A DNA stretch of 64,000 nucleotides from a virus (Duplodnaviria > Heunggongvirae > Uroviricota > Caudoviricetes): the IMG/VR virus record IMGVR_UViG_2645727901_000008; one strand, written 5' to 3'. The position numbers and the translations under genes are program-made. Each line of letters begins with the position of its first letter. Positions within the stretch are counted from its first letter, which is position 1. Of the stretch, positions 2,170 to 54,257 are shown piece by piece. The notes under the pieces were generated by a model. That model worked only from the letters and a program-made list of their open reading frames with translations, was not told the DNA's origin and did not search any database.

Positions 2170-2211
2170 CAATTGTGTTAGAAAATTCTATTCAATTATC
2201 TAACACAATTG
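2170..2211. promoter_or_regulatory. 13-bp perfect inverted repeat CAATTGTGTTAGA-N16-TCTAACACAATTG immediately upstream of the rdgC start; carries the recurrent TGTTAGA/TCTAACA motif
   Basis: Read directly from the sequence. The arms are reverse complements. Confidence 0.6.
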
Positions 2212-2221
2212 GATGTGTTTT

Positions 2222-2875
2222 CTATCCCTTCTTGAAATCAAAGTTGCTTGCGATGGCCTGGAAGGTGCCTCCAGCCTTGAAATCAATATTTTCGTCGGCT
2301 GTCACAGTAATGTTTTTGCCATTAACGCTGATGTTATCGGCTGATTTGACGTTAACACTCCCTCCCGCATTCACTACTACATCAGCCGGACCAATGATGT
2401 ATATCTGCCCTGATTCATTCATTCCAATCCTTGAGCCTGCTGCCGTATTCGCTATTTCATATCCACCGCCAGCCGTTCGCACTTCGAGCACATTGTTGCG
2501 GTGAATCACGAAATCTTTTGTCGCCGAAAATTGCGGGCGGGGAGGCGCTCCGTCTACTTCTGGTGGCGTCCAGCCGCTACCATTGCCTGACGCCTCCGGC
2601 GCGACGTTTGGTACTCCTCCAGGCGCATCCTGAGCTGCGCCAACTATCATTGGGCGTCTGGTATCAATTCGACCATTAACATCCAGATAAGGAAACTCTA
2701 CCCATACCAGGTCGCCTTTTACTGTAGGTACAAACGCGTTACCTATGGGTAACAGGTATTCTGCCCAGGGTAGATCGTCATCAGGAACGCCATTCCAGTC
2801 TGGTAAAACACGGACCTGAGCACGCATAAGCCCTGCCGGGTGCACAGTTCCAACAATTTGCGCTCTACGCTTCAT
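2222..2875 (-). CDS. phage baseplate central spike/hub protein (gpV/gp5-like OB-fold plus beta-helix)
   Basis: IVGTVHPAGLMRAQVRVLPDW...LPWAEYLLPIG...GDLVWVEF pattern typical of gpV-type spikes, followed by a Gly/Asn-rich repetitive C-terminus. ATGA overlap with the upstream gene. Confidence 0.5.
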   Translation of the reverse strand: MKRRAQIVGTVHPAGLMRAQVRVLPDWNGVPDDDLPWAEYLLPIGNAFVPTVKGDLVWVEFPYLDVNGRIDTRRPMIVGAAQDAPGGVPNVAPEASGNGSGWTPPEVDGAPPRPQFSATKDFVIHRNNVLEVRTAGGGYEIANTAAGSRIGMNESGQIYIIGPADVVVNAGGSVNVKSADNISVNGKNITVTADENIDFKAGGTFQAIASNFDFKKG

Positions 2876-3852
2876 TTGTTCGGCACTCCTAATATCATTC
2901 GTGTTGTGTAGCCTACGCGGTCTTCAAAGTGCGCAACATTTTTTACTATCAGCTTGCGGGGCATTGATTCATCAATGCGGTTTTCCTGGTCATAGCGGTA
3001 TACGATAATCTCTATTACCATTCCCGGTTTTATATCCGGATTGCCTGCGACTTCTATATCCATTTTGGGGACGAGAGACAGCTGCATATTGCGAAGAGTT
3101 TCCATATCAGAATCGGATATATAACGCACTGGGAGTGAGCTATCGCCATATTCGACGTAGCCATCGGTCATGGAATACCCAACAAAACGATATTGATTCT
3201 TTGCTGTTGTCGCATGTTCCTGTTGGAGTAGGCGCATTTTGGACAAAGTGTATTCTGCTTTAGGGTTATTCCCCTCGTAGGTAAATGATGGCGTTTGCTT
3301 CATCAGATCAGCCAGGGTGTAAAAGTTAAATTCCCCACGGCATACCCAACATAATGCACCTTTGTCTCGCGCTATCTGCGAGAGCATTTTTGACGGTTTG
3401 TCACCGGCATTCAGATGATATGTAACTGCGCGTTTTAGCACGCTGCTGGTAATTTTAAGCTTGCCGGAATATGCCTTGAATATAGCGTCTGGTGTTTTGT
3501 TGGTATGTAAATTTGTGCGCGGGGAGGGGATCTTAAACCTGCGCACGTCTTCACTGACAGCAATAACGGTAACAACATCACCAGCCAGCATTGCAGACGT
3601 AACAAAGAAGTCTGTTTTAAAAGTGCCTGCATTACCGTTTGGATCGCCCATTTCAGCCACCAGCGATGCACCGTATTTGGCTTTCCAGTCATCAATTACG
3701 GTGCCGGTAGCGTCATGAATTTCCAGTTTTAGCAAAGGGGCTTTGAGGCTGGTTTTTTCTACATATACTGCGGTAAAAATCCAGTCTCGTGGCACTTTGT
3801 TATCGTTAATGAGCACTGACTGTAGAAAATATTGTTGTAACTCCTGGGCCAC
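2872..3852 (-). CDS. hypothetical phage morphogenesis protein (baseplate cluster)
   Basis: 326-aa ORF. GTG start at 3852 with GGGGTGA RBS. Start and stop coupled to neighbouring genes. Confidence 0.45.
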   Translation of the reverse strand: MAQELQQYFLQSVLINDNKVPRDWIFTAVYVEKTSLKAPLLKLEIHDATGTVIDDWKAKYGASLVAEMGDPNGNAGTFKTDFFVTSAMLAGDVVTVIAVSEDVRRFKIPSPRTNLHTNKTPDAIFKAYSGKLKITSSVLKRAVTYHLNAGDKPSKMLSQIARDKGALCWVCRGEFNFYTLADLMKQTPSFTYEGNNPKAEYTLSKMRLLQQEHATTAKNQYRFVGYSMTDGYVEYGDSSLPVRYISDSDMETLRNMQLSLVPKMDIEVAGNPDIKPGMVIEIIVYRYDQENRIDESMPRKLIVKNVAHFEDRVGYTTRMILGVPNK

Positions 3853-3855
3853 TTA

Positions 3856-4623
3856 TCACCCCATAGATATCGAGGTTTCGGTAATAATACGTTTTGCGTC
3901 CAACTCCCATGCTGTGATCACGTCTGCAATCACACTTATCGGCGCTTGTGTGGCATAAATACGCTCTTCTCCAATTGGTGCCGAAACATCCGTAAATCCG
4001 ACTTCTTTGGCATCCTGTATCGAGCAAATCAGCGGGACCGGGACACGAACAAGGTGAGTGGTTGCTTCAAATTGTGTACCTGTCATCAGGCGAAGCCGTG
4101 CGCCCAGCGAATTACACATCAGACTCATGGTCGCTTTATCAGTTGACATTAACGTAACGTCATACGTCAGAATGGCCTGGGTGTATTCCAGTTCTGCTAA
4201 AGGCATTCCGGTATCCGGTTCGCAAAAACTGGCTACTTTTTTGCGGTCAATCTGCTGATCATCGTTGATATAATTGATATCCATAGTGCGTGAGATATTG
4301 ACCAGGGGGAGAGCATCCCGGTTAATGTTCTGGTTTTCAGGTTTTCTCCCTTGCCCGGCATTTGCGCGACGAACTGCTTTAAGAAACTCGATCGCATTGT
4401 CGAAACGGGCCACATAGACACGCTCTGCTGGTGGACGATTCAGGAATGACGCAAAGCGTTTTTCTTCCGGCGCGGGGGCCACCAGTAAGATATCAGAAAA
4501 GATATTGCTGATTAGCGTAGCAAACGCGTTATCCACGTTTTCAAAGCCCGTGGTCTGGAATTTCCCTGTGCGTGAGGTTTGCCATTCACCTGTTCGCGCC
4601 AGGAGGGTTTTATTTGAAGTCAT
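3856..4623 (-). CDS. hypothetical phage morphogenesis protein
   Basis: 255-aa ORF. ATG at 4623 overlapping the upstream stop (ATGA). Confidence 0.45.
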   Translation of the reverse strand: MTSNKTLLARTGEWQTSRTGKFQTTGFENVDNAFATLISNIFSDILLVAPAPEEKRFASFLNRPPAERVYVARFDNAIEFLKAVRRANAGQGRKPENQNINRDALPLVNISRTMDINYINDDQQIDRKKVASFCEPDTGMPLAELEYTQAILTYDVTLMSTDKATMSLMCNSLGARLRLMTGTQFEATTHLVRVPVPLICSIQDAKEVGFTDVSAPIGEERIYATQAPISVIADVITAWELDAKRIITETSISMG

Positions 4624-5411: not shown

Positions 5412-5482
5412 AAGCATCCTCAAAGGTCGATTTATCAGGTATCGAGGGTGCATTGTCTGGAGATTGTGATTTCAATTCATAT

Positions 5483-5532
5483 CCCAACATGGGACTAAAG
5501 TGCTTTACATTGTCCCATATTGGGACTACTAT
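5483..5532 (+). promoter_or_regulatory. higBA promoter (TTTACA-N16-TACTAT) overlapped by two palindromic operators, TCCCAACATGGGA and GTCCCATATTGGGAC
   Basis: Read from the sequence. The palindromes flank and overlap the -35/-10 elements, as expected for HigA autoregulation. Confidence 0.55.
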
Positions 5533-5556
5533 ACTTTCAGAGAGAAGGAATCTGTG

Positions 5557-5859: not shown

Positions 5860-5862
5860 ATC

Positions 5863-7022: not shown

Positions 7023-7026
7023 TATA

Positions 7027-9607: not shown

Positions 9608-9824
9608 TGCTTTGGCGTTATGACTCCCTACCGCGCTTCGGCTGAAAGTTAATCGTCAAAAGAACCTTCAACGGGAGCCGTTAGCGCGATGGATTATGTG
9701 CAGTTTGTGATTTCCAAAATAGTGTCAACCACTTTTTGTGGATTTTATTTTTTGACCGAAATTTGGCCTAAATCATGTTGATGTAGTTAATTGTTTTTAT
9801 AACATAAAACTTCATTTTGTTTAC

Positions 9825-13614: not shown

Positions 13615-14541
13615 TTAACTAACAATCCAGTCCATAGCAACCATATCCTCTGGCGCTAAATCAATAGCATGGATTTTCCCATCCCGGATAGTGCGCCAGT
13701 GCTTCCTTGATCCGCCTTCGGGCCATACCCATACACCTTCAGACCATGAGGCGCGACGGCATACCGTTGCATATCCACTTCTGATCTTCTCTCTGGCGGT
13801 ATGCAGTGACAGATTATCTTTTGGGATTTCCGGTAAAGGATGATGGATTGCCTGAAACAGCCCCATCTTGGGATGATACCAGCGTTTGTTGCGTGGTTCT
13901 GCCTCCGACATAACCTGCTTGAAGGCTTTCTGGAAGGGGGCCAGGGCCACAATGGAGCGTCGCGCAAGCAAACCATCTGGAGTTAAAAACTCATGCGTAT
14001 CGGTGGGAATCCGGAAAGCGTTAACCAGGTTGCGACATTTGGCTTCGGTCAGGCCACATTTCGCCGCCAGCTGGCGGTAGCCAATGTAGCCTTCCGGAAT
14101 ATTGCCTTTCTTTATTTGCTCGAGTGTTTCAGCGACCATCGATACTTGTGCTGATACCTCGGCTACCTGGGCATTTACGGCGTTGATCCGGCGTTCATGC
14201 TCAAGATGCATTTGCGCCATTTCAGCCAGGATTTCGGCTTTTGATTTTAACTGTACCCGGGCATTCTCCAGTTCGCGCCAGCGGTCCACCAGCCGGGCGG
14301 TGAATTCGGGAGAGAGCTGCGCGACGACGACAATACTATCGCGCTTGCCTTGCTCGCCTTCGAAGACGTAATAGCTCGCCGGGCGGCCTGCGGTGGGCTT
14401 TTCCTCAATTTGAGGAAAAGATATTACGCCCCGTTCCGCCAGGTGTTCAATGGTGCGTTTAACGTTATCAGGGCGCTTACCTACCAGTTCCGCGATCTCA
14501 ATGCTGGTCATTGTCGCTTTTTGAGAGATGGACAGATTCAT
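13615..14541 (-). CDS. Rha-family phage regulatory/antirepressor protein with a C-terminal extension (copy 1, fused form)
   Basis: MTSIEIAELVGKRPDNVKRTIE... is a typical Rha (Phage_pRha) N-terminus. The C-terminal ~60 aa match the separate 66-aa ORF at 51564..51764. Confidence 0.7.
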   Translation of the reverse strand: MNLSISQKATMTSIEIAELVGKRPDNVKRTIEHLAERGVISFPQIEEKPTAGRPASYYVFEGEQGKRDSIVVVAQLSPEFTARLVDRWRELENARVQLKSKAEILAEMAQMHLEHERRINAVNAQVAEVSAQVSMVAETLEQIKKGNIPEGYIGYRQLAAKCGLTEAKCRNLVNAFRIPTDTHEFLTPDGLLARRSIVALAPFQKAFKQVMSEAEPRNKRWYHPKMGLFQAIHHPLPEIPKDNLSLHTAREKIRSGYATVCRRASWSEGVWVWPEGGSRKHWRTIRDGKIHAIDLAPEDMVAMDWIVS

Positions 14542-14965: not shown

Positions 14966-15557
14966 TGTCGCCTTTGACATTATCCGGGGTTCCAATCCCG
15001 GCACCCGTTTTTCTAAGGTGCCGTAGAAATATACCCCACGATAATGCCAGGGCGCAACAGTCAGTATTTTATGCTTTGGCGGATTTCTTCCGGGCTTGCT
15101 TGCAGGCGTAGGCCATTGCTTTAGCTTTCACTTCATCCAGCTTCCCGGTGATCGCTTCTTTTCCGAGAGTGACAAACCAGTCATAGCAACCGCCAGTGAT
15201 GTTCTGGATTTGAAAGTTGAGGTAGCGAACGGTCATTTTGACACCCCCAGCGCGAGTAAAGAATGCAGATTATCGCGTGAGTGGCGGACAACGAGTGATG
15301 GGAAAAGACAGTAGCTGTTCATAGTGTAGTGACTCCTTGCTTTCGGAGCCGCCATCGACTGTTCCACGGTCTGGTGGCGGCGCAATAAAGGCTGGAACAC
15401 CGTGAGTCAACGGGGGCTTTTCAGCCACCTATATTGCACCGCCATAGGTATAGCGGCGGCAATAATACGAAAAACTAAACAGTTTGTCTCAAAAAGTTGA
15501 CCGGTGTGCCAATCGGTAGTGAATGTACATCGGAGAAATTTACAATTCAACTTAAAA

Positions 15558-15572
15558 TGTTAGAAAACTAAT
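15558..15572. promoter_or_regulatory. recurrent motif TGTTAGAAAACTAAT (rc ATTAGTTTTCTAACA) at the ref 3' end / upstream of the small-RNA-icd-like-Rha region
   Basis: Member of the motif family described in findings. Confidence 0.45.
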
Positions 15573-16146
15573 TTATCAATTCAATCGCCATCTGATACAA
15601 CGTCATTTCATCGGCATTGTGCCGCATGAAATCTGCTTTTCCGCCTATTTTTCCGTCAGCATGAACAGGGACCAGCCAGGGATATTGTTCTCGGACCTCG
15701 GCTGGCGCTGCGTACTGGTGGTGCCATTTACACAAAGGGAGGACATATTTATGCGCGTTCTCTGCCGTTCTCCCGAAGATATGGTGCAGGGATACTACTG
15801 GGCTATGTTGTCCGTGAATATGGCAGGCAATGCAGGGGAGAGTACCGATAGCGGTCTGTATCCGGCGTTCATCAGCTGTGAGTGATCTGCCCTTCAGGCC
15901 GCGTGACGTGCGTGTTTTTTTGGGCGGAGCGGATACAGCTTTATCTTTTCTCCGCTGTTCATATTGCTTTGCTTTTTCAATTTTCTTTTGCCGATATTCA
16001 GGCGATGCGGCTTTTTCTCTCGCTCGCTGCTGCTGGCGTTGAGCTTGTTGAAGGCGCTTTGCCCTTTGTTCCTCTCGCCAGGCCGGGTCAGCCAATTTTT
16101 GCATGGCTTTTTGTCTCTGTTTCTCCCAATAGCTCTGTTTCTGCAT
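15568..16146 (-). CDS. ref: Ref-like HNH endonuclease (recombination enhancement function): basic N-terminus plus HNH core
   Basis: K/R/Q-rich N-terminal ~90 aa, then CIACHIHGQHSPVVSLHHIFGRTAENAHKYVLPLCKWHH, matching the P1 Ref architecture. Confidence 0.6.
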   Translation of the reverse strand: MQKQSYWEKQRQKAMQKLADPAWREEQRAKRLQQAQRQQQRAREKAASPEYRQKKIEKAKQYEQRRKDKAVSAPPKKTRTSRGLKGRSLTADERRIQTAIGTLPCIACHIHGQHSPVVSLHHIFGRTAENAHKYVLPLCKWHHQYAAPAEVREQYPWLVPVHADGKIGGKADFMRHNADEMTLYQMAIELIN

Positions 16147-16194
16147 GATGGCAGTCTCTTACTTTTCAATGATTTTTCTATGATTGATCAAAAC

Positions 16195-16224
16195 TGTTAG
16201 ATATTCAAAATTGATTTTCTAACA
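16195..16224. promoter_or_regulatory. imperfect inverted repeat TGTTAGATATTCAAAA/TTGATTTTCTAACA in the divergent ref / early-operon control region
   Basis: Read from the sequence. Confidence 0.5.
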
Positions 16225-16263
16225 CAAAACATTAATATCATTCCTGATAACTGTTTGGAGGAC

Positions 16264-19505: not shown

Positions 19506-19531
19506 TCAAATCATTTACGCACTCAAAATGC

Positions 19532-19560
19532 GTTAGAACATTGATTTTAGTTTTCTAACA
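19532..19560. promoter_or_regulatory. inverted motif pair GTTAGAAC...TTTTCTAACA upstream of the 19603 gene
   Basis: Read from the sequence. Confidence 0.45.
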
Positions 19561-19602
19561 TATTATTTTACCACTCGGAACAAAACAGAGTCGGTATGCA
19601 TT

Positions 19603-30420: not shown

Positions 30421-30478
30421 AGCACCCTCCGAAATAGGCGAGGGTACTTTACAGCAAAGATAACAATCTAAAAAGATG

Positions 30479-30493
30479 TGTTAGAAATTTAAT
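30479..30493. promoter_or_regulatory. recurrent motif TGTTAGAAATTTAAT between the cre-like stop and the 30420 gene
   Basis: Motif family member. Confidence 0.45.
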
Positions 30494-31522
30494 TTATGAA
30501 TCCATCAGGCGGCTATTAGCCCCCACAGACACGCCGCCACGGCGCAGATACCGCATAAGTGTTTCCGGTTTCTTCCAGGTTCCTTCCTGCATGATCTCCA
30601 CCATAGACACCTGCTTTTCAGCCATATCGATAGCGGCCCCGACACGAGCACTATGCCCGGTCCACGTCCGGTATCTCCCTTTGTTTGGCGTGGCATCTCT
30701 TTTATTCAGCAACACCCAGGCGTCGCTGAATATTTTCTCCATTGCAGGTGCAGTAAGGGGAGTTGTCGTAATCCTGGCCTTATTGCTACGGTGTATCGGC
30801 GGGAACAGCACCGCGTCAGGATGTTCACGAAGCCCGGAAACATCCAGCCAGTCATTCAGCACTGCGGTAGTGCGACGGGAAAGCACCTTATCAAGCCCGG
30901 CGGCGGTCGTTATTGTCTTCGTGTGTGAAATATGTAGCGTGACAGTGTCACCTGTTTGGTCCAGATCTCCTACACGAATACGCGAGATTTCAGACATTCG
31001 CATCAGCGTATTGTATGCAACGAAGAGGAAAGCCCGGTTACGCAGGTCCACCAGCCGTTCTGACCTGGACAACAGGACGTCGAGCAGTTTCAGATCGTCC
31101 CACCGCAGCGGTATAGCCTGGCCTGTTCGTTCGCCTTTTTCCGTTGCCGCTTCGCGCCGGATGCGCCGCATAGCCAGAGAAACACTTTTATCATCCGAAA
31201 GTGGCGGAAGGCCACAATGCGAAAGCAGCATGTTAAGCATGGCGTAGTGCTTATCAATGGTGGTCGAAGCCAGATCAGCATCATGCAGCTGAAGAAAATA
31301 CTCGCGGGCCATCTCTGGTGAGATCGGGAACCAAGCGAGCTGGCGAGCGTGGCACCATCGCGCCCAGGAGTGAAACACTAACCGGAGATCGCGCAAAGTA
31401 TTCGGCGCGTAAGCCCCCTGGTCATTCATGAACCGCATAAAGTTTTCTGCGGCCTCCTGGTACTCTTTGCCAATGTTGCGCAGAAAACCACCGGAGCTGC
31501 CAGAGATAATTAATTCACTCAT
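30494..31522 (-). CDS. cre: Cre-family tyrosine site-specific recombinase (P1 Cre homolog)
   Basis: Alignable to P1 Cre along the whole length: VSLAMRRIRRE vs VSLVMRRIRKE; AFLFVAYNTLMRMSEISRIRVGDL vs AFLGIAYNTLLRIAEIARIRVKDI; WTGHSARVGAAIDMA vs WSGHSARVGAARDMA; IMQEGTW vs IMQAGGW. The catalytic R..H..R..Y context is retained. Confidence 0.85.
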   Translation of the reverse strand: MSELIISGSSGGFLRNIGKEYQEAAENFMRFMNDQGAYAPNTLRDLRLVFHSWARWCHARQLAWFPISPEMAREYFLQLHDADLASTTIDKHYAMLNMLLSHCGLPPLSDDKSVSLAMRRIRREAATEKGERTGQAIPLRWDDLKLLDVLLSRSERLVDLRNRAFLFVAYNTLMRMSEISRIRVGDLDQTGDTVTLHISHTKTITTAAGLDKVLSRRTTAVLNDWLDVSGLREHPDAVLFPPIHRSNKARITTTPLTAPAMEKIFSDAWVLLNKRDATPNKGRYRTWTGHSARVGAAIDMAEKQVSMVEIMQEGTWKKPETLMRYLRRGGVSVGANSRLMDS

Positions 31523-31706: not shown

Positions 31707-31878
31707 AAACTTAGGAATTTTTTTCCTTTCCCCGTAGATGGGCAATGCATTGCTGGCGTGGGCTTTAAGTTATGCCTGGCAGTTTTTAAGCAGAATTTTC
31801 TAAATTGGATGACAAAAAAATGCATCTTGATCCTTTACTCACCCTGTTATTCGGCATAGATTTGTCATAGTAATTTTA

Positions 31879-31893
31879 TGTTAGAAAACTAAA
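31879..31893. promoter_or_regulatory. recurrent motif TGTTAGAAAACTAAA immediately upstream of the RBS of the 31907 gene
   Basis: Motif family member. Confidence 0.45.
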
Positions 31894-31906
31894 TCGAGTA
31901 GGAATA

Positions 31907-32944
31907 ATGAGTAAGAAGTCGATCGAGAAAGAGTACAAACGGTTCCTGCAAACCGCTGAACGGTGGAAAGAGCTGGTGGTCGCAAACTCTGTTTTCCATG
32001 ATACCAGTTATGCCGGCGAGGAATTCCGCCACGTTGCACTAACACATGATCAGAATGTACTAGAAGAAGCTGAAAAGTGCCTCACAGAATGGAAAGCCTT
32101 TGTTGACTTGTGCCGTAACGCTGACGGCAAAGCGTCCAACATTGTTGAGTCTGTATATTCTCCGATCCCATTCATTATTGAGGACACAAATCAAAGCACG
32201 CATATTGTTGTGCAAAGCGCGACCACCACCCGCTCATTTACGCGCGAAAATCTGCTCAAAAAATATGATGCAATTATAAAGAAAAGCCTGAAAAACAAGA
32301 TATTTTCGCAGATTGTTGGTGCACTTGAAGAAGAGCGCCGTTTTTTCGCATCAGAACCTGAAGGGGAAGTTTACCGGGCGCGCAAAGATGGATACACAGA
32401 TGTAGTGCTTACAACAAACATTGAAGGCAGCAATGCTCTGTCACGATTCAGGGTAGGCGCACACGGAGCCTTAGTGTTCGCAAAACTTCCGAACACCACA
32501 GTGCCCGTTGTTAATAATGTCGGCGAACGTCGCAGCATTACTATTTATTCTGGGGTTGAGTCGATACCTTGCGGCCTGCTTGGTGACTTTAGCCTCTATC
32601 GCGTTCGCGATCTGGAGAAACACCAACCAAGCTATGTTGCGAAGTCATATATCTTGCGAAACATCGACATCCGCAATGAGAGCTTAAAGAACAAATCAGC
32701 CAAAATGCTTGAGGAAGCCGATCCGGCTATTCGCCATATCATTGAGCGTAAAATACAGACAGCACGCGAAGCGATGGCGAGACTGAATAAAATGGATCTG
32801 GAGTTGTTAGACGTAATGATGACATCCGGAGATGACCTGACAGGCATAAAACTGACAGACGCGCGGAAAAGATACGGTAAAACCATAGAAGAACGTTACG
32901 GGTTCACTTTCTCCCAAACACAGCACGCCGCTAAACTCTGGTAA
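31907..32944 (+). CDS. hypothetical protein at the position of the P1 immunity (c1) gene, between the lox site and pacB; candidate regulator
   Basis: 345-aa ORF with GAGTAGGA RBS. No similarity to P1 C1 detectable by eye, so the call is positional only. Confidence 0.4.
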   Translation: MSKKSIEKEYKRFLQTAERWKELVVANSVFHDTSYAGEEFRHVALTHDQNVLEEAEKCLTEWKAFVDLCRNADGKASNIVESVYSPIPFIIEDTNQSTHIVVQSATTTRSFTRENLLKKYDAIIKKSLKNKIFSQIVGALEEERRFFASEPEGEVYRARKDGYTDVVLTTNIEGSNALSRFRVGAHGALVFAKLPNTTVPVVNNVGERRSITIYSGVESIPCGLLGDFSLYRVRDLEKHQPSYVAKSYILRNIDIRNESLKNKSAKMLEEADPAIRHIIERKIQTAREAMARLNKMDLELLDVMMTSGDDLTGIKLTDARKRYGKTIEERYGFTFSQTQHAAKLW

Positions 32945-34478: not shown

Positions 34479-35842
34479 TAATCATCCTCCGGCGGTTCTA
34501 TCGCGATATCATCATCTCCGGCGTCATACCCTGCATCAGATACATCATAATCACCGTAAATTTCAGCCGTTGCCGAAGGGTCAATATCCAGCTCTTCGTC
34601 GTTGGCCTCGAATTCTCCAGCTTTACGCTCGCCATTGCGGTCGTAATCTCCGCACCCCAATTCTTCAACAATGGTTGCCACATCCGCCCGGCGCTCTGCC
34701 AGCCATTGCGGATGGTTAGCCTGAAGCGTTGCAAACTCCCTTGCCTCTTTGTCCAGCTGTTCATCATCAACATCATTGACGTCAGAAACAGGTGGTTCGA
34801 GAAGAGTGATAGCTTTCGCCGCGCGCGCCGCGAGGATAGCCGGGACGCTGACCCCCTGGCGCTCGATGTATTCAGCAACACCGATATCATCCAGTTCCTC
34901 GCGCTCACGCATACGTATAGCGGCGGCGATAACTCTGGCTGCGCGTGCGTCAGCGCCAATGCGATATTCAATCTCTTTGCCACGCTGTTCGGCCTGTAGG
35001 CGTGCTAATTCGAGTTTTTCTCTGGCCTCAGCCTCTTTGAATGCTTGCTGGCGAGCGCTCTGACGAAGCTTTTCATCCCCCTGTCGCAGCTTTTGTTCGG
35101 ACTGATATATAGCTGCCAACCTACTGATAAAATCATTCATGTAGTAGGCCGCGTCACTGATTAGACCGAGAAGACGCTGCCCAGGGTGCATTCCTTCTGG
35201 CTCTTTATCGCCCAAGGCGTCTATTTCCGCCTGTAGGCGTTCGGCCTCCTGATCAACAATGCTTTGATACTGAAGTGCGCGCTCTTGCGCCATTTGAATT
35301 GCTAACCGCAGGTGTTCTTCTGCGCCGTTCTTCATCATATCGCGAGCCACATTCGTAGTGGGCAATGTGGCACGCTGCACAGCACCGTCAGGGATCATTG
35401 CAGAAGATCCCTCAATTTTTGGGGCGCTTTTATCTTCTTCGGGGATCATTTTCGCCATTTTTTCGCGCAATGATCTCCTGACAGATTCTTTTATCTCATT
35501 GTTATTATTTGCATTATTTTCATGATCCGAAGTTTTCTTTCTCGGCATACTTCGGAAAGAACCTGCGCCCTGCGAATTGTCAATTTCTGTAAATTTTGTT
35601 TTTTCTGCACCCTCTTCCAGCTTTTTTGTTGCTCTTCCCGCCCGTTTTTTTTCAGGTGATTTGGTGCTTTTTTTTGTTGTCTTTACCTGCGACCGCACCT
35701 CATTTTTTTTCATATTGAGATGCTTTCTGGCTGTATTGAAGCTAAGGCCATGCTCCTCACAGTATTCCTTTACAGTGATCCCTTTTTCTTCACGCAACGC
35801 TATAAAGCGGGCGCGGTGCTCCTCCCAATTAACCAGACTCAT
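34478..35842 (-). CDS. pacA: terminase small/pac-recognition subunit (PacA-like)
   Basis: Position immediately upstream of the terminase large subunit. N-terminal HTH-like region. Contains an internal GATC cluster (candidate pac). Confidence 0.55.
   Translation of the reverse strand: MSLVNWEEHRARFIALREEKGITVKEYCEEHGLSFNTARKHLNMKKNEVRSQVKTTKKSTKSPEKKRAGRATKKLEEGAEKTKFTEIDNSQGAGSFRSMPRKKTSDHENNANNNNEIKESVRRSLREKMAKMIPEEDKSAPKIEGSSAMIPDGAVQRATLPTTNVARDMMKNGAEEHLRLAIQMAQERALQYQSIVDQEAERLQAEIDALGDKEPEGMHPGQRLLGLISDAAYYMNDFISRLAAIYQSEQKLRQGDEKLRQSARQQAFKEAEAREKLELARLQAEQRGKEIEYRIGADARAARVIAAAIRMREREELDDIGVAEYIERQGVSVPAILAARAAKAITLLEPPVSDVNDVDDEQLDKEAREFATLQANHPQWLAERRADVATIVEELGCGDYDRNGERKAGEFEANDEELDIDPSATAEIYGDYDVSDAGYDAGDDDIAIEPPEDD
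35390..35530. other. candidate pac site: 5 GATC (Dam) sites within about 135 bp inside the 5' third of pacA
   Basis: GATC at 35393, 35406, 35454, 35472 and 35524. Local density is far above the background expectation. Confidence 0.4.
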
Positions 35843-36231
35843 AAAGCAACACCACGCTTTTTAACGGCGGCATTCCACAGCTTATTCGCCATGTCCACCA
35901 GCTCTCGTTGCTCTTTTCGCGCCTGTTCGACTGATTTCCTGCTACAGTTTTTAACCAGTAAGCTACCGTATTCAGGCGTGCGCCCGCGCACCTTGAACTG
36001 ATATCCGTTCAGACCATGTAGCCAATATTTTCGTGGATACACACGATCATCCAGCTCACAGATTGCCCTGCTTGAACGAACAAAATGACGAATGATGTTA
36101 GTTACACTTACTCGTGAAACATGGAGATGAGGGTATTTTTCTTTGGCGAGAGTGGTAATTTCAGTGACTGTCAGATAGCAGTCAGCCCTGATCATGATAT
36201 CCGCAATTTCTGCGCTGCTGATTTGTTCCAT
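35839..36231 (-). CDS. small basic protein in the position of P1 Lpa (late promoter activator), upstream of pacA
   Basis: 130 aa. ATGA coupling to pacA. A motif site lies upstream. Confidence 0.35.
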   Translation of the reverse strand: MEQISSAEIADIMIRADCYLTVTEITTLAKEKYPHLHVSRVSVTNIIRHFVRSSRAICELDDRVYPRKYWLHGLNGYQFKVRGRTPEYGSLLVKNCSRKSVEQARKEQRELVDMANKLWNAAVKKRGVAL

Positions 36232-36308
36232 TAATCCCCCGGGCAGGAAATGACCGAGGGGATGATAATGAGAATGTTAAAACTGTATAGACTGGTAAAA
36301 AGATGATT

Positions 36309-36327
36309 ATATTAGAAAATTAATATT
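36309..36327. promoter_or_regulatory. motif variant ATATTAGAAAATTAATATT upstream of the lpa-like gene
   Basis: Motif family member (variant core TTCTAATA). Confidence 0.35.
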
Positions 36328-36339
36328 AAATACCTAACG

Positions 36340-36732
36340 CTACCAGCGAGACAAACGAACAACATGTTTCACTTTTGCGATCCACTTTCCGCGATAACTA
36401 TTGATTACGGCCTGTGCCAGCTTCAAATTGGCTTCAAAATCAGCCTTACTACCATCAGACTCCACCAGCATTCCTCCATCTATTTCTGGTAAACATAGAT
36501 AATCCTGCTCAACCTGCAGCGGCATTGATGGCTCTCTGAATGGCGTTACTTGCTCTGCTTTCCAGCGAAATCTAACCCTCATCCCCCTGGTGGTCATTAC
36601 TAGATAGCCTGTTATAGTGCTTTTATGGCCCACATCAGTACGCGTGGCATTGCATGACACGATCTTACAGTTAGCGATAGACCACTCCATATTGGTGGCC
36701 TGTTGAGTGCTTAATTTGGTAGTCCCGTACAT
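36340..36732 (-). CDS. hypothetical protein
   Basis: 130 aa. ATGA coupling. Confidence 0.4.
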   Translation of the reverse strand: MYGTTKLSTQQATNMEWSIANCKIVSCNATRTDVGHKSTITGYLVMTTRGMRVRFRWKAEQVTPFREPSMPLQVEQDYLCLPEIDGGMLVESDGSKADFEANLKLAQAVINSYRGKWIAKVKHVVRLSRW

Positions 36733-39619: not shown

Positions 39620-40680
39620 CGGGTACGTCTCCGGCGAGGGCTTCCACCTCCGTATGCTTTTCGGCGCACCGCGCCCTGGCTGCAATTCAGTAACAGGGGA
39701 TGCATAACCCTGGCTTCCAGCGTGATTAGCGCCTTCAGCATGACGGGATATACCCGTAACCAACAAACTTTCCCATATACCATCAAACAATGGCTGTTAC
39801 GCGGGAGGGACGTAACAGGTAAGGGCGCTGACCAGAAAGACCTGACCCTTCTCATTCATCTGGTTAATCACACCAGCGCCCTTGCCTGTTATGTCTCCCC
39901 GTTCCCTAATACACAGACGGGGACACTCTGCGGTCGATTTTTTGACGGGGGACGACTCATACCCCGTGGCGTCTGGCTTCTTAGGCCGCTACCATCATCA
40001 GATCATCGTTTGCATTTACTTTAATGGTCGGTTTCTAAACCGCCGCAAAGCCGCTAACCATGACGAAAACCCTAAAAAAGCCCACCCGAAGATGGGCAAA
40101 TACGCTACATCTCACACAAGAAAGAAGCCGACTGCCTGAGCTGGATTCACTTTCAAATGCCCGCAGAAAGGGAACACAAGTCGGCTTCTTTCTTGATGCG
40201 GCACTCTCTCCGCCCGTCACCGTTCTGTCTCGGTTGTCGCGTTTGCCACGCCAGCCGTAACGAGGTTTAAAGTCTTTGCACGTTTCCATCACTCGACTGC
40301 CGTCTGTGGCTGTTCGTTGCAGCGGGGGTGCCTCCCCCTGGGGATATCCCCGGCCTTACCCCATTCTTTCAAGACACAATGCAAGGCCGCATCCGCATAG
40401 GTGCATTACCGCAACATTAAGGAGACTTAGGGCAAAAGGTAATCGCCACAAAAAAAATCCCTATGCCTCCTTAATGTTGAGGATGTGCATTGATGATGAT
40501 TCGATGCGGCGAGTCCCGTTACTCTCTGCCGGACCATCATCAATGAACATCTTAAAAAGACCTTCCGTGGCTCAACATGTCTTGTCGTTTACTCCGTAAA
40601 GTGCTCTCTCTGAAACCACTTTACGCACTAAACCTGCTGAACTTTGGCTTGCTCGGTGCCAAAGCGAGTCCCTGTATGTA
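39620..40680 (-). other. roughly 1-kb GC-rich noncoding region with multiple long inverted repeats (candidate structured RNA(s) co-transcribed with the tRNA array)
   Basis: No convincing ORF on either strand. Perfect 16-bp IR AAGAAAGAAGCCGACT (40118..40133) / AGTCGGCTTCTTTCTT (40179..40194). 12-bp IR AACATTAAGGAG / CTCCTTAATGTT (40412..40477). 23-bp imperfect IR GGACGTAACAGGTAAGGGCGCTG / CAGCGCCCTTGCCTGTTATGTCTCC. Confidence 0.35.
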
Positions 40681-40682
40681 TG

Positions 40683-40697
40683 TAATTTTCTAACACT
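40683..40697. promoter_or_regulatory. motif TAATTTTCTAACACT
   Basis: Motif family member. Confidence 0.4.
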
Positions 40698-40836
40698 TTA
40701 ATTTGTTATTTGCTGGTGGGCGAACAACAACCAATAAGTGACTATCAAGCCCAGCAAGCGAAATGTGGCAACGCTCCACCAGCAAGGAAAATTCTAAGTT
40801 AAGTTACTCTCACAATCAATACGTTCGTTTAGTGAA

Positions 40837-40852
40837 ATTAGATTTCTAACAT
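40837..40852. promoter_or_regulatory. motif ATTAGATTTCTAACAT just 3' of the 40854 gene
   Basis: Motif family member. Confidence 0.45.
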
Positions 40853-40853
40853 T

Positions 40854-42074: not shown

Positions 42075-42087
42075 TGTTTTTTGCAAG

Positions 42088-42103
42088 ATTAGTTTTCTAA
42101 CAT
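42088..42103. promoter_or_regulatory. motif ATTAGTTTTCTAACAT about 14 nt upstream of the 42074 start codon
   Basis: Motif family member. Confidence 0.45.
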
Positions 42104-42177
42104 ATTTTATTAGTATGAGAACAAGAGCGAAAGATGTGATAAACAAAAAACCCGCTAATCGGCGGGTTTTTGAGCGG

Positions 42178-42688: not shown

Positions 42689-43132
42689 TTAATCAAGACA
42701 AACATATTCCGTGATAGCTTTTATGGCTTCATCGGCACTGCGCGCCTCAAAGCAGTAATAGCCTGCTTCCGTGAGGCGAGTCATCCAGACGAGCTGTTCG
42801 GGAGTCAGACGGTTTCTCCCGTGCTTCATCTCAATGCGCATTCCGTGATACCCACCACGAGCAAGGTCAATAGAAAGGTCCGGATAGCCCTTCTTCTGAC
42901 CTTCTGCCACCATCTTAATGGCTGTCCTTTTGCCTCTCAGGCCGCCGTTCGGTGTTGAGTGTGTGTGCTCATACACGTATCGCATGTTGCGATACAGCCA
43001 ATCCAGAACGCGAACCTGTTCGTAATGTTCGTAATTCCGTTTTAATAAGTCAGGATTTCTTTCTAACTCTCTCAGTGCAGCAGCGTGCGGGGATATTTCA
43101 GAATACGCACTATGATGCCTGCGTCTTCGCAT
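42689..43132 (-). CDS. VRR-NUC domain nuclease (PD-(D/E)xK superfamily)
   Basis: C-terminal region GYPDLSIDLARGGYHGMRIEMKHG...EQLVWMTRL is the VRR-NUC signature. Confidence 0.55.
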   Translation of the reverse strand: MRRRRHHSAYSEISPHAAALRELERNPDLLKRNYEHYEQVRVLDWLYRNMRYVYEHTHSTPNGGLRGKRTAIKMVAEGQKKGYPDLSIDLARGGYHGMRIEMKHGRNRLTPEQLVWMTRLTEAGYYCFEARSADEAIKAITEYVCLD

Positions 43133-43147
43133 CAAATTTCTAACACA
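43133..43147. promoter_or_regulatory. motif TCAAATTTCTAACAC abutting the VRR-NUC gene start
   Basis: Motif family member. Confidence 0.4.
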
Positions 43148-51563: not shown

Positions 51564-51764
51564 TCAATTCACGATCCAATCATTACCGACTATATCAGCC
51601 GTCGATAAATCAACTTCCCGGATCTGGAGTCCATTAATACAAAACCATCCGGTAGTAGAGTAATTATCAGGCCAGGCCCATACACCAACACTCCATGCTT
51701 TACGGCGGCACACTTCAGCCTGTCCTTCCCTGATTTTTTTTACCGCCTGCATGATGTCCATCAC
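51564..51764 (-). CDS. small protein equivalent to the C-terminal extension of the fused Rha protein (copy 2, split form)
   Basis: EVCRRKAWSVGVWAWP...DIVGNDWIVN matches the C-terminus of the 13615..14541 product. Own strong RBS GGGGAGGTGA. Confidence 0.55.
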   Translation of the reverse strand: MMDIMQAVKKIREGQAEVCRRKAWSVGVWAWPDNYSTTGWFCINGLQIREVDLSTADIVGNDWIVN

Positions 51765-52468
51765 TCACCTCCCCAACCGATCACCTGGAATTGCCCCATT
51801 TTGGGGTGATACCAGCGTTTTCCTCGGTGTTCAGCCTCCGACATCATCCGGTTAAAAGCATTCATGAAGGGAGATAAGGCCACGATGGAACGACGCGACA
51901 ATACCCCCTCTGGAGTTAAAAACTCATGTGTATCGGTGGGGATCCGGTAAGCGTTAACCAGGTTGCGACATTTGGCTTCGGTCAGGCCGCATTTTGCCGC
52001 CAGCTGGCGGTAGCCAATGTAACCTTCCGGCATGTTGCCCTTCTTGATTTGCTCGACGGTTTCTACCACCTGGCTAACCTTTGACTCAACAACATGAAGC
52101 CGCTTTTGCTGCTGAACTGCATTTGCAGCCATTGCGGCGATCATCTCTATTTCGGTCAACGGCTGGCGTGCTTGTTCTTCCAGTTCGCGCCAGCGGTCCA
52201 CCAGCCGGGCGGTGAATTCGGGAGAGAGCTGCGCGACGACGATAATGCTATCGCGCTTGCCTTGCTCGCCTTCGAAGACGTAAGCCTCAACACTACGTCG
52301 TAGTCCTAAGTTATTGATTTTTTCGAAAACCTCAATTTGAGGACGAACAATAACGCCACCTTTGTCTAATGTCTCAATAGTGCGTTTCACATTGTCATGA
52401 CGTTTTCCCACCAGCTCCGCGATCTCAATGCTGGTCATTGATGGCTTTTCGAGAATGCAGATATCCAT
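51761..52468 (-). CDS. Rha-family phage regulatory/antirepressor protein (copy 2)
   Basis: MTSIEIAELVGKRHDNVKRTIE... Long stretches about 90% identical at nucleotide level to copy 1. Confidence 0.7.
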   Translation of the reverse strand: MDICILEKPSMTSIEIAELVGKRHDNVKRTIETLDKGGVIVRPQIEVFEKINNLGLRRSVEAYVFEGEQGKRDSIIVVAQLSPEFTARLVDRWRELEEQARQPLTEIEMIAAMAANAVQQQKRLHVVESKVSQVVETVEQIKKGNMPEGYIGYRQLAAKCGLTEAKCRNLVNAYRIPTDTHEFLTPEGVLSRRSIVALSPFMNAFNRMMSEAEHRGKRWYHPKMGQFQVIGWGGE

Positions 52469-52692: not shown

Positions 52693-53036
52693 AGTTACGG
52701 CCTCACTAACAGGTTTAACAACCTGCTACCCGCTGCTAAACAGGTGGCAGGACGTGACGGGGTTAGCAGACTGGCGTTAGTGAAACCAGCAGGCCGAAGC
52801 CTCCCCATCACGCCCCACCATAATTTGGGCGTAACGCGGTTTTACGGACACAAAAATACCGCAATATCGGATATCTGCGGTTGTCCGCACTAACATTCAG
52901 GCTGCTAAACCCGGTCGCAGAATTTGCTACGACGACATGAATATAAGCCTGAAAACATGGAAGATCAACTAAAAATTTCAGCAATAGATGACTTCAGTCG
53001 ATGATGCAGATCATACATTCCGATTTAGAAACGGCA

Positions 53037-53052
53037 AATTAATTTTCTAACA
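53037..53052. promoter_or_regulatory. motif AATTAATTTTCTAACA
   Basis: Motif family member. Confidence 0.45.
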
Positions 53053-53106
53053 CAAAATGTCGAGCGAGCATTTTCCGATCATTGGGATGTTTTGTAGACG
53101 CACAGG

Positions 53107-54069
53107 TCACCCCCTAAAGCCAGCCGGGATTGACCAATCCTCACGGTCAAATTCAGACCGATAGCCACGCTGTTTCATCAGGTCAAAGGCTTCACCAATG
53201 GTTGCACACCCCTGGGAGCCAGAATAATCCATTGAGAAATCCAGGGCACTGGATTGTTTAGGCTTATTCACTGCGGTAGCGGCACTACGTATCCATGCAA
53301 ATTTTTTTGCCAGCTTTTCAGCGGTACGATACAGAGCCTGCCGTTTTGTGTGCCCCTCGTCTGAACGACGCTTTGCAGCTCTCGCTTTTGCCGCCGCCAG
53401 GCAGTGGTTGGTCTGTTCTTCCCTGATTACTGTTTTTTTATCCAGCACCCCGTTATCCGTTTGAGAACTATCTGCTGGTGAAGCCTTTGGCTGAACCGCG
53501 CATGATCTTTCTCTTCTTTTGGCTATAGAGTGACTCTTATTTTCTATTGGCTGTTCATTTTGAACATGGGGGGACTTGTTCAATTTGAACAGGGGGTTCC
53601 CAGTTTCAAAAAAATAACGAACCTTTGAAATCAACTGCTTAACCAGTTTTGTGGCGTTGGCAAATTTGATGCCCTGCTTACCCCCTATCTCCATTGCTAC
53701 ATGAATGAAGTGGAGAAATTGTGTCGTAAACCGATATACGTTACACACCTGGGCATTGTTATTCGCTACCTGATGTTGCTTAACAAGCATTCCGCACTTC
53801 GTCGCTTCAGCAAATGCCCGGCGTACAGTAGAAATACTGCGTCCTGTAATCTCGGACATATCAGCATATGAGCGACGGATCATGTATTCATCGGTAGACC
53901 CTGCCAGGTTGGCGAACTCGGCAATAATGGCGCTATGTGAAGGGGAAAGAAGACCGCTATGACGAGCAAAAAAACTCAACTGATGACCTTTGATTTTTTT
54001 GTGGTATTCAGTGTTGTTTTTATACTCAGAAGTGTTGAAAGTTACTGAAACTGAATTTAAAATATTCAT
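53107..54069 (-). CDS. putative DNA-binding protein with a central HTH (possible replication-initiator/regulator)
   Basis: HTH-like MSEITGRSISTVRRAFAEATKCGMLVKQ. Basic C-terminal region. Stand-alone transcription unit between two terminators. Confidence 0.35.
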   Translation of the reverse strand: MNILNSVSVTFNTSEYKNNTEYHKKIKGHQLSFFARHSGLLSPSHSAIIAEFANLAGSTDEYMIRRSYADMSEITGRSISTVRRAFAEATKCGMLVKQHQVANNNAQVCNVYRFTTQFLHFIHVAMEIGGKQGIKFANATKLVKQLISKVRYFFETGNPLFKLNKSPHVQNEQPIENKSHSIAKRRERSCAVQPKASPADSSQTDNGVLDKKTVIREEQTNHCLAAAKARAAKRRSDEGHTKRQALYRTAEKLAKKFAWIRSAATAVNKPKQSSALDFSMDYSGSQGCATIGEAFDLMKQRGYRSEFDREDWSIPAGFRG

Positions 54070-54129
54070 CAGATAGTTCCGTGCAAAAATCTATCTACCG
54101 TATAAATCTATGCCAGTGGATTTATACAC

Positions 54130-54168
54130 CAAAAAGCCGCTTCTCAGCGGCTTTTGCTTTTTTTGGCA
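54130..54168. terminator. bidirectional terminator GCCGCTTCTCAGCGGC flanked by A-run and T-run
   Basis: Read from the sequence. Confidence 0.6.
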
Positions 54169-54242
54169 GTCGCTACCGGAGCAGTGACCGCGATCCTACT
54201 CAATCACATCGGACAGGATCAACAGTGTATATAAATACACTA

Positions 54243-54257
54243 TGTTAGAAATTTAAT
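54243..54257. promoter_or_regulatory. motif TGTTAGAAATTTAAT
   Basis: Motif family member. Confidence 0.45.

Follow-up and report, generated by a model that had tools for sequence, protein, structure and literature searches.

The window, that is, the whole stretch of 64,000 nucleotides analysed here, was recognised by sequence comparison as a phage D6-like, P1-related plasmid prophage. Identity to D6 (MF356679, AY753669) was 92-97% over the shared backbone; over about one third of its length the window is mosaic relative to D6. The gene order dre-rox-c1-pacB-pacA-lpa places c1 in the syntenic slot of P1 c1, which likewise lies between the recombinase/lox-type site and pacB. The C1 protein of the window is 90% identical to that of D6. 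A short motif with the D6-type consensus aTtAatTTTCTAACAy recurs in the window. It was located with a position weight matrix (PWM) of 19 columns, built from 12 sites and applied with a cut-off of 8 bits. The sites and the genes concerned are listed below with PWM scores in bits; P1 operator positions were taken from the annotated record AF234172, and all operators of the window are putative.

2174-2192 (minus) and 2189-2207 (plus): divergent pair of the hrdC operon (18.3 and 17.7 bits); hrdC(rdgC)-dcm-dam begins 11 nt downstream of 2174..2207; same pair in D6 at 64114-64147; position of Odmt in P1.
9788..9806, plus: weak, doubtful site TTTTTATAACATA (14.6 bits) with a C>A change in the core (TATAAC); ORF start at 9825, 18 nt downstream; kept in D6 at 72195-72213 (15.0 bits).
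15556..15574, minus: operator on the ref stop codon (29.2 bits), at the head of immI-like module 1 (isrK/a1b1-like RNA, C4 RNA, icd, Rha-type antirepressor; Rfam matches for C4 RNA at 14811-14898 and isrK at 14943-15021); position of Oc4.
16193..16226, both strands: divergent pair (11.8 and 27.6 bits) flanked by ref on the minus strand (start 16146) and by the orf88 operon on the plus strand (start 16267); position of Oref.
19529..19562, both strands: divergent pair (16.5 and 27.3 bits) between the ppp stop and the pdcB start, the latter 40 nt downstream; D6 counterpart at 80707-80740.
30477..30495, minus: operator on the stop of dre, the cre-like recombinase gene (29.7 bits); orf117 is 56 nt downstream.
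31789..31807, plus: degenerate second c1-upstream site TTTTCTAAAT, found by alignment; intact TTTTCTAACA in relatives; convergent with the next site, about 81 bp apart.
31877..31895, minus: c1-proximal operator (27.3 bits), c1 start codon 11 nt downstream; position of the c1-proximal operators of P1.
31907..32944, plus: c1, 345-aa repressor by homology, PF27008 (Phage_P7_repressor_C1).
35839..36231, minus: lpa, late promoter activator (PF25716, E 5e-57).
36308-36326 (minus, strong) and 36323-36341 (plus, weak, divergent): pair 76 nt upstream of lpa (25.8 and 9.7 bits); position of Olpa, 71 nt upstream of lpa in P1.
40679..40697, plus: operator at the head of the minus-strand block tRNA-tciA-tciB-tRNA-orf6-orf5 (21.7 bits), downstream of a promoter-like site at 40819-40791 (minus).
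40835..40853, plus: operator abutting the pmgS stop (28.2 bits), 16 nt upstream of the -35 of the same promoter-like site; together with 40679..40697 position-equivalent to Obanab (P1 ban operon layout).
42086..42104, plus: operator (28.1 bits) with the pmgR terminator (42171-42146) on one side and the pmgS start on the other, abutting the -10 of a promoter-like TTCGCT-16-TAAAAT; in D6 at 10315-10333 (30.7 bits); near the position of OpmgRa/b.
43129..43147, plus: operator on the pmgM start (22.2 bits), downstream of a promoter-like TTGATA-16-TATTAT (43198-43171); weakly conserved in D6; near the position of O26/Oppp.
53036..53054, plus: operator between the repL stop and immI-like module 2 (30.7 bits); a1b1 is 89 nt downstream, and the module holds a1b1 targets, C4 RNA, icd and a Roi-type antirepressor (RF03163 at 52894-52946, RF01695 at 52740-52825); position of Oc4/Orlf.
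54241..54259, minus: operator between the pro stop and repL (30.0 bits), repL ATG 171 nt downstream; counterparts in D6 at 22465-22483 and at the same place in Citrobacter; position of OrepL.

The operator-promoter overlaps are tentative, because the sigma-70 promoter predictions near the sites were weak and, with 11 against 16.4 expected from shuffled sequence, not more numerous than by chance.

The earlier note had described the motif at 13 or more sites, all intergenic and in both orientations. All 13 positions exist, and the PWM scan raised the number to 18 sites at 14 loci. The scan gave 19 matches of at least 8 bits in the window; in shuffled sequence the numbers were 5.1 with the 8-bit and 0.9 with a 12-bit cut-off. 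The match at 43764 (9.0 bits) is located within ulx and was discarded as noise, and a near-match at 48633 within darB scores below 8 bits. With at most 3 mismatches ATTAGTTTTCTAACAY was found 13 times (1.12 expected), a number reached in none of 100 shuffles, and the 13-mer core with at most 1 mismatch 7 times (0.07 expected). After removal of the ulx match all 14 loci (18 of 18 sites) are non-coding when the real pmgS start is used, although about 91% of the window is coding and only 9.1% non-coding (P ~2.7e-15). The core 7-mer TCTAACA has 13 occurrences in non-coding DNA of the window and 3 in 'coding' DNA, one of which falls between genes in the D6 annotation. Seven sites are oriented like the nearest gene and 6 against it. 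A start codon 3-40 nt downstream, as described before, holds for about half of the sites; the rest are located at stop codons (of ref, dre, pmgS and pro) or precede the start by 76-171 nt.

In D6 the motif is found at the same positions as in the window. The complete D6 genome contains all window sites and one extra site (54201), and its matches of at least 14.8 bits are 100% intergenic. Between window and D6 the motif is 95.5% and its flanks are 92.5% identical, a difference that is not significant alone (p = 0.09). Neither of the two D6 GenBank records has an operator annotated; an earlier description in print is possible.

The inverted repeat TTAG-N4-CTAA, formerly regarded as embedded in the motif, is found in just 5 of the 17 sites aligned (the 18th, 9788, was left out) and is lost in relatives. 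The information is carried by the asymmetric core TTTCTAACA, which is invariant in relatives, whereas the 5' half of the site is not conserved. Conserved two-fold symmetry, as in the dyad-symmetric half-sites of a lambda-type dimeric HTH repressor, was found neither in the 17 aligned sites nor in the relatives. The conserved feature is an asymmetric site like that of P1 and not a palindrome. Inverted repeats do occur where two sites overlap. The repeat at 2170..2211 is perfect, as had been noted, but its arms (CCAATTGTGTTAGA / TCTAACACAATTGG, 16 bp between) measure 14 and not 13 bp. This locus, 16195..16224 and 19532..19560, listed before as inverted repeats, are overlapping divergent pairs, and 36308..36341, formerly listed only as a variant, is a fourth. 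All four have an identical offset of 15 bp, with the TTAG and CTAA centres 22 bp apart. Single as well as paired, overlapping inverted operators occur in P1 too; its Obanab pair is convergent with cores 12 bp apart, whereas the pairs of the window are divergent.

For P1, 22 dispersed asymmetric operators with the consensus ATTGCTCTAATAAATTT are described (PMC8546580). Sites of the window match the positions of Odmt, Oc4, Oref, OrepL/Orlf, Olpa, Oban, OpmgR, O26/Oppp and the c1 operators, and the regulon members in common are c1, lpa, repL, c4-icd-ant, ref, dmt/hrdC, the tRNA-tci(ban) operon and the pmg genes. Operators that are numerous, about 17 bp long, dispersed, asymmetric and non-coding are common to the ImmC systems of P1/P7 and of the window. 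P1 has one immI module and the window two immI-like modules; two Rfam C4 RNAs are located downstream of two of the sites. The motif had been called unrelated to the P1 operator, which does not stand: aligned on CTAA, the P1 (TTGCTCTAATA) and D6-type (TTTTTCTAACA) sites are alike at 8 of 11 positions (TT..TCTAA.A). The flanks differ, with TGC|TCTAA|TA in P1 and TTT|TCTAA|CA in the window. The P1 PWM gave no match of at least 12 bits in the window, P1-type operators are also absent from D6, and the PWM of the window gave nothing above 11.4 bits in P1. Since the two types of sites are mutually absent and only TCTAA is common, they belong to different specificity groups of the same kind of system. 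P1 operators may also supply a -10 hexamer (PkilA in OrepL).

Among relatives the operator word changes with the C1 clade: TGCTCTAATA in P1, TTTTCTAACA in D6-type elements, AATTCTAAGG in a Citrobacter plasmid and TTCTAAA in an Acinetobacter plasmid. The core TCTAA is common to all four, which argues for a relation of the motif to the P1 operator, and the regulon positions are kept while the motif changes. In four relatives with 45-52% identical C1 (L007, L008, L009, L011) the flanking DNA has diverged but the core persists at syntenic positions. Upstream of c1, TGTTAGAAAA is the only invariant block of 10 columns in an alignment of six genomes with 51% mean identity. In the Citrobacter and Acinetobacter elements, with 28-29% identical C1, neither P1-type nor D6-type operators were found; unbiased k-mer discovery yielded new intergenic words that contain the TCTAA core and occupy the corresponding places of the regulon, AATTCTAAGG and wTTCTAAAw, respectively. 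The conjugative plasmid pK91 contains a D6-like fragment of only about 8 kb. Both strong sites in this fragment lie beside c1 and the recombinase gene, and none was found in the non-phage part of pK91. This plasmid serves as a natural control. The position behind the recombinase gene (30477 in the window) is occupied in all relatives examined (L007-L009, pK91, Citrobacter, Acinetobacter).

The C1 protein of the window, a remote homologue of P1 C1 from the same family (PF27008), is 20% identical to it over 239 aa (E 2e-5) and 62 aa longer; the family assignment was made on C1 homologs. Its AF2 model has a pLDDT of 93. With two independent high-confidence models of the C1 family (pLDDT 93 and 96.5) the only PDB matches were Tus-DNA complexes (1ecr, 4xr0-2), i.e. 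the E. coli replication terminus protein on DNA, and the similarity spans both domains. A Tus-like fold is therefore predicted for the C1 repressor family, a likeness that comes from predicted models and not from a solved structure. Tus arrests replication forks, in contrast to the putative role of C1 in transcriptional repression, and does not have the extra C-terminal helical extension of the D6-type protein. A profile of 48 C1-family sequences detected no Tus homology among PDB sequences at E up to 10, and C1 gave no match to an HTH family. The product of orf13, in the position of lxc, shows no similarity to Lxc (E 5.3), and no coi-like ORF was found between dre and c1; small fast-evolving proteins can escape detection. 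With no Lxc or Coi homolog detected, the accessory circuitry may differ from that of P1.

Taken together, the motif has a probability of roughly 85% of being the operator set for the C1 repressor of D6 type that 31907..32944 encodes; the assignment to C1 is made because both the site and its positions are homologous to P1. Genomic position, comparison among genomes and the joint change of motif and C1 clade all support a dispersed C1-type regulon with a repressor specificity different from P1, as the earlier note had proposed.

It is improbable that the motif is bound by a factor other than C1, such as a host nucleoid protein or another protein of the phage, e.g. a further repressor or a partner of the Rha/Roi antirepressors. 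A phage protein that diverged together with C1 would covary with the motif in the same way, so that the clade pattern fits it equally well. However, the motif shares homology in sequence (TCTAA, asymmetry, AT-rich surroundings) and in position with P1 operators of C1 that were defined by experiment, and in pK91 the sites survive only beside c1. A host factor would keep its site regardless of the phage clade, and outside the D6-like fragment pK91 has no strong sites.

Still less likely is a D6-type late promoter, in which an Lpa-binding box (ATTAGTTTT) would be followed by the -10-like TAACAT; a late-activator box had been considered before. The late promoters of P1 consist of a 9-bp -22 box, a 4-nt spacer and TAnnAT, and the motif superficially resembles this layout (AAGTGACTT-N4-TAnnAT): here too a TAnnAT-like hexamer comes after a short box, and the copies are dispersed in the genome. 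Site 15556 scores 9.5 bits with the P1 late-promoter PWM, and as Lpa of the window is only 31% identical to P1 Lpa, its box could differ. In contrast to P1 late promoters, the motif has a different sequence, no orientation bias and the wrong gene set. It stands in front of lpa, c1, repL, ref and both immI modules, all of them early units under C1 control in P1, and the regions upstream of lydA, prt, darB, gene 26 and gene 7 lack it. Five sites (40679, 40835, 42086, 43129 and 53036) point antisense into minus-strand genes, four loci carry divergent pairs, and separate P1-late-promoter-like elements are present at 8689-8707 and 40791-40809. Late operons without the motif and the mixed orientation thus argue against a late-promoter box; lpa would be a regulated target and not the binder of the motif.

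A generic promoter piece (TAACAT as sigma-70 -10) or an RNA hairpin (UUAG-N4-CUAA) is the least credible: some sites have a -35-like hexamer 16-17 nt upstream of TAACAT (e.g. TTGAAT-16-TAACAT at 15556), and the -10 of PkilA is a precedent from P1, but half of the sites end in TAACAC without the essential final T and orientation is mixed. The 4-bp stem is restricted to the few palindromic sites and lost in relatives, in contrast to the invariant asymmetric core. A common RNA element is excluded by the presence of sites on both strands relative to transcription.

For the C1 operator set, we infer binding by C1, its stoichiometry, and which promoters are repressed and how, as follows. About 18 asymmetric sites with the core TTTCTAACA, most of them single and those at four loci divergent overlapping pairs, would be occupied by C1 in the lysogenic state, and the lytic genes would thereby be kept silent. 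The promoters of lpa, repL, both c4-icd-antirepressor modules, ref and hrdC-dcm-dam would be blocked, furthermore those of the tRNA/tci operon, pmgS, pmgM, the dre-adjacent genes and c1 itself; site 31877..31895 presumably serves this autoregulation. For P1 C1, DNA binding as a monomer is reported. Because of this and of the predicted Tus-like fold, one C1 monomer may read one asymmetric site through beta-strands, and at paired sites two monomers would be placed on the same DNA face. The specificity of immunity would be set by 2-3 bases on either side of the invariant TCTAA core. The motif would thus represent D6's own form of the scattered operators known in P1.

The 16-bp motif aTTAGTTTTCTAACAy is most probably the operator of a D6-type C1 repressor, and we put this reading at about 85%. 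That the motif recurs, as claimed by the earlier note, is borne out by its frequency. With up to three mismatches, 13 matches to the 16-mer were found in the window compared to 1.12 expected; the 13-mer core was found seven times with up to one mismatch compared to 0.07 expected. A position weight matrix (PWM) with 19 columns was built from 12 sites. At 8 bits or more it matched 19 times in the window and 5.1 times in shuffled sequence (0.9 times at 12 bits). One match falls within ulx and is regarded as noise; the remaining 18 form 14 loci. With the real pmgS start, all 14 are non-coding, the non-coding share of the window being 9.1% (P ~2.7e-15). The sites are thus intergenic, as had been stated, and chance occurrence within coding DNA is not the pattern. 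Furthermore, CTAACAC, TCTAACA and TTCTAAC were among the top five 7-mers enriched in intergenic versus coding DNA in an unbiased comparison. TCTAACA was counted 13 times in non-coding and three times in 'coding' DNA.

The information content of the motif is asymmetric, with TTTCTAACA nearly invariant and a weaker 5' portion (aTtAa/g). The palindrome TTAG-N4-CTAA, stressed by the earlier note, was not upheld; it requires G at position 5, which is found in five of 17 aligned sites. The occurrence in both orientations was confirmed, as seven sites have the same and six the opposite orientation relative to the nearest regulated gene. Overlapping divergent pairs are present at four loci (hrdC, the ref/orf88 region, the ppp/pdcB region and lpa). 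Their offset is 15 bp in all four cases, which places the TTAG and CTAA cores 22 bp apart. The hrdC pair has perfect inverted arms of 14 bp. In contrast, the paired sites of P1 Obanab are convergent, with cores 12 bp apart.

Among the relatives of the P1-like phage-plasmids, D6 is the closest. The window belongs to a D6-like plasmid prophage; in megablast, 87% of a 15-kb probe aligned to Escherichia phage D6 (MF356679), with 92.6% identity. Plasmids of about 90 kb from E. coli and Shigella reached up to 94.6% identity to the window (megablast). Whole-window blastn against the rebuilt D6 genome gave colinear blocks of 92-97% identity, broken by mosaic stretches. Nucleotide similarity to D6 is absent or weak at 5472-7064, 9882-13332, 17464-18011 and 20929-26457. 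These mosaic accessory regions are partly covered by other D6-like plasmids, with a single-record maximum of 77% of window 5000-27000. A named gene map was obtained by transfer of the D6 genes onto the window. It comprises dam-dcm-hrdC, the tail genes 5/6/24/7 and 25/26, mat, two icd-antirepressor modules, ref, ppp, pdcB, phd/doc, dut, dre (cre-like), c1 (31907..32944), pacB/pacA, lpa (35839..36231), a tRNA/tci block, pmgS/R/M, ulx, darB, repL, pro/prt, the dar operon, lydAB and cin. The five tRNA genes (Met, Ser, Thr, Tyr, Arg; 37762-39613) are all on the minus strand, in the same orientation as tciA/tciB. The D6 GenBank record has three tRNAs, placed on the plus strand and against the direction of tciA/tciB; this record seems to be in error about the strand.

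P1 C1 is reported to act on 22 operators scattered over the genome, whose asymmetric consensus of 17 bp is ATTGCTCTAATAAATTT (PMC8546580). All C1 operators and late promoters are annotated in the P1 GenBank record AF234172. No operator is annotated in either D6 GenBank record, and no description of D6 operators was found in a literature search of papers other than the D6 genome paper itself. The sites in the window occupy the functional positions of the P1 operators, in agreement with the dispersed P1-like C1 regulon proposed before.

Sites in the window and P1 operators at the same functional position
Upstream of hrdC-dcm-dam: P1 Odmt
Upstream of ref: P1 Oref
Head of each c4-icd-antirepressor module: P1 Oc4
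Upstream of repL: P1 OrepL
Between the repL stop and immI module 2: P1 Orlf
76 nt upstream of lpa: P1 Olpa (71 nt)
Upstream of the tRNA-tci operon: P1 Obanab
Around pmgR, pmgS and pmgM: P1 OpmgRa/b, O26 and Oppp
11 nt upstream of c1: P1 c1-proximal operators

Two immI-like modules are present in the window (14811-15021; 52740-52946), compared to one in P1. Their C4 RNAs lie at 14811-14898 and 52740-52825, with a1b1/isrK elements upstream (Rfam). In each module a C4 antisense RNA (RF01695) is accompanied by an icd gene and, upstream, by a target element of the a1b1 or isrK-like kind. The antirepressors differ, one being of the Rha type (13615..14541) and the other of the Roi type (51761..52468).

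The late promoter activator Lpa is encoded in the window (PF25716). It is merely 31% identical to P1 Lpa; therefore the possibility that the motif is a late promoter was tested explicitly. P1 late promoters follow the pattern AAGTGACTT-N4-TAnnAT, and the sole good matches in the window are:

8689-8707, plus strand: P1-late-promoter-like element, AAGTGACTTTCATTAATCT, 18.8 bits
40791-40809, minus strand: P1-late-promoter-like element, GAGTAACTTAACTTAGAAT, 12.7 bits

An obvious P1-type late promoter is absent from most late operons in the window. The motif itself was rejected as a late promoter. It has no orientation bias, occurs in divergent pairs, precedes lpa itself, c1 and early genes, and is not found upstream of lydA, prt, darB, gene 26 or gene 7. 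The late-activator box offered as an alternative by the earlier note is contradicted by this orientation and gene content.

The C1 operator reading was also examined by comparison with relatives. The complete D6 genome has the same sites and an extra one at 54201 (gene 23/orf52 interval), beyond the range of the window; PWM matches of at least 14.8 bits are all intergenic in D6. Specificity is reciprocal, as the window and D6 are without P1-type operators and P1 is without D6-type sites. Motif conservation relative to the flanks was not significant between the window and D6 (p = 0.09), because the two are too similar; deep alignments were used instead. In four metagenomic relatives with C1 45-52% identical (L007, L008, L009 and L011), TTTTCTAACA is kept at syntenic positions: behind the stop of the recombinase gene, at two places before c1, before lpa and flanking pmgS. 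The ATTAG half is lost in all four. When the region upstream of c1 was aligned for six genomes (mean identity 51%), TGTTAGAAAA was the sole run of invariant columns. About 85 bp further upstream there is another box, in convergent orientation, whose copy in the window (31789-31807) is degenerate. The region upstream of lpa shows the same pattern. In its alignment (A2), TTTTTGCCAGTCT and a TTAYCATCC...CCGG...CCGGAGGGA block between the operator and the start codon (36232-36300) are kept in relatives. These conserved elements may represent a promoter or a 5' leader with structure.

In the S. Typhi conjugative plasmid pK91 (L012, NZ_CP029874; IncFIB multiresistance) the D6-like part is a fragment of about 8 kb only (16900-24800). 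Both strong sites of this plasmid lie within it, one before c1 and the other behind the recombinase stop, and none elsewhere. The c1 gene is intact and 70.6% identical to that of the window; with its two operators it might give immunity against D6-group phage-plasmids.

Contig L010 (C1 30% identical) showed neither D6-type nor P1-type operators within its 4 kb, too short for the derivation of a motif of its own. Neither operator type was detected in a Citrobacter phage-plasmid (L014 and L015, NZ_CP099371; C1 28% identical). Unbiased k-mer discovery gave AATTCTAAGG there. This word precedes rdgC and, in three copies, c1; it also flanks pmgS, and it lies in the ref divergent region, behind the recombinase stop and behind pro. 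An Acinetobacter element (L016, CP060164; C1 29% identical) has wTTCTAAAw at the same kinds of position. With such dispersed intergenic motifs on the TCTAA core, these two distant P1/D6-like phage-plasmids appear to form additional immunity groups. When CTAA is used as the anchor of the alignment, the consensus reads aa.AtTGCtCTAATaAaTtt for P1, aTtAatTTTCTAACAca for the D6 type and cctttaaTTCTAAGG for Citrobacter. Therefore, the D6-type operator is a diverged relative of the P1 operator with a fixed core, and the former view that the two are unrelated has to be revised. Four flank groups surround TCTAA: TGC..TA in P1, TTT..CA in the D6 type, AAT..GG in Citrobacter and wTT..Aw in Acinetobacter. 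As judged from the alignment, the core is fixed and the candidate specificity positions are -3/-2 and +1/+2.

The c1 product lies in the syntenic slot and is a remote homolog of P1 C1 (20% identity over 239 aa, E 2e-5). A Pfam search with the protein itself gave no match; its homologs carry PF27008 (Phage_P7_repressor_C1) in precomputed annotations. Clustering at 50% identity yields only 59 groups for this family in a set of 1.84 billion proteins, and C1 homologs are present in 155 PLSDB plasmid records. Because the sites are homologous to those of P1 in both sequence and position, we infer that the motif belongs to C1 rather than to another co-diverging protein. In P1, lxc encodes the C1 co-repressor. 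No homologs of Lxc or Coi were found in the window, and the interval from dre to c1 (31523-31906) holds no coi-like ORF. Immediately downstream of ulx, the lxc position in P1, lies orf13 (43321-43581; 86 aa), without similarity to Lxc. A rox-like recombination site, tctaactttaaataatgccaattatctaaagttaga (31665-31708), overlaps the sigma-70 promoter-like TTGGCA-16-TATAAT, which has 11 of 12 consensus matches and is directed towards dre.

By the precedent of P1, C1 would repress through promoter occlusion or as a roadblock. Sigma-70 matches near the sites were weak in two scans, and their number was not above that of shuffled sequence. Some of these promoter-like elements make contact with an operator. 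TTCGCT-16-TAAAAT adjoins 42086-42104, right after the strong terminator closing pmgR, and GATAAT lies within the hrdC pair. For TTGAAT-16-TAACAT at 15556, a hexamer is supplied by the 3' end of the operator. The site 43129-43147 overlaps the pmgM start, with TTGATA-16-TATTAT upstream. TTGATT-17-TAGAAT at the head of the tRNA/tci block is bracketed by two sites. Another heptamer, TGTATGT, is about 50-fold enriched in non-coding DNA (seven copies versus one in coding DNA; 10917, 12985, 13146, 40673-40683, 43293 and 63324). Two copies lie in GC-rich hairpin loops (43285-43308; about 63310-63340) and a tandem copy abuts operator 40679.

To our knowledge, C1 has no recognised DNA-binding motif. For the C1 family a Tus fold was predicted with high confidence. 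The significant PDB matches of two independent models, of the window C1 and of the short-form protein P0058 (32% identical to P1 C1), are Tus-DNA complexes only. The P0058 model (pLDDT 96.5) matches Tus alone (E ~1e-9, TM 0.44-0.50). A C1-family sequence profile gave no Tus signal against PDB sequences, and no paper connecting C1 with Tus was found in a literature search. Tus, a replication-terminator protein, is a monomer that clamps the asymmetric Ter site through interdomain beta-strands; P1 C1 has been reported as a monomer on its asymmetric operator. The family-invariant R41 and R159 and the near-invariant A105 and R157 are located on predicted strands, and the invariant G187 beside one. 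In the models, these residues together with the precedents of Tus and P1 C1 support a single monomer on each asymmetric site. The pairs would carry two monomers on the same DNA face, 22 bp or about two helical turns apart. We regard it as evenly balanced whether the C1 family consists of Tus-fold monomers on an asymmetric operator, with the invariant TCTAA and 2-3 bases per side setting the immunity group.

In general, this kind of system is well known from P1. The operator sequence and regulon map of the D6 group, the divergent pair geometry and the family-wide TCTAA code appear to be new. Should the TCTAA code and the Tus-like fold be confirmed, they would account for the recognition of asymmetric sites by a repressor that has no helix-turn-helix. 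C1 would then be explained in structural terms for the first time, and a phage immunity repressor would be tied to a replication-terminator fold. The immunity code would be predictable and possibly reprogrammable, and at the D6-type pairs C1 would bind cooperatively in a second way. E. coli, Salmonella and Shigella commonly harbour D6-like and P1-like phage-plasmids, which often carry resistance genes. Knowledge of the D6-group operator would improve annotation, including that of the D6 records, and help to design reporters and inducible derivatives. It would also allow the recognition of remnants that may still give immunity, such as the c1-plus-operator fragment of pK91. Together with the regulon, it would serve to predict immunity and incompatibility among co-resident phage-plasmids.
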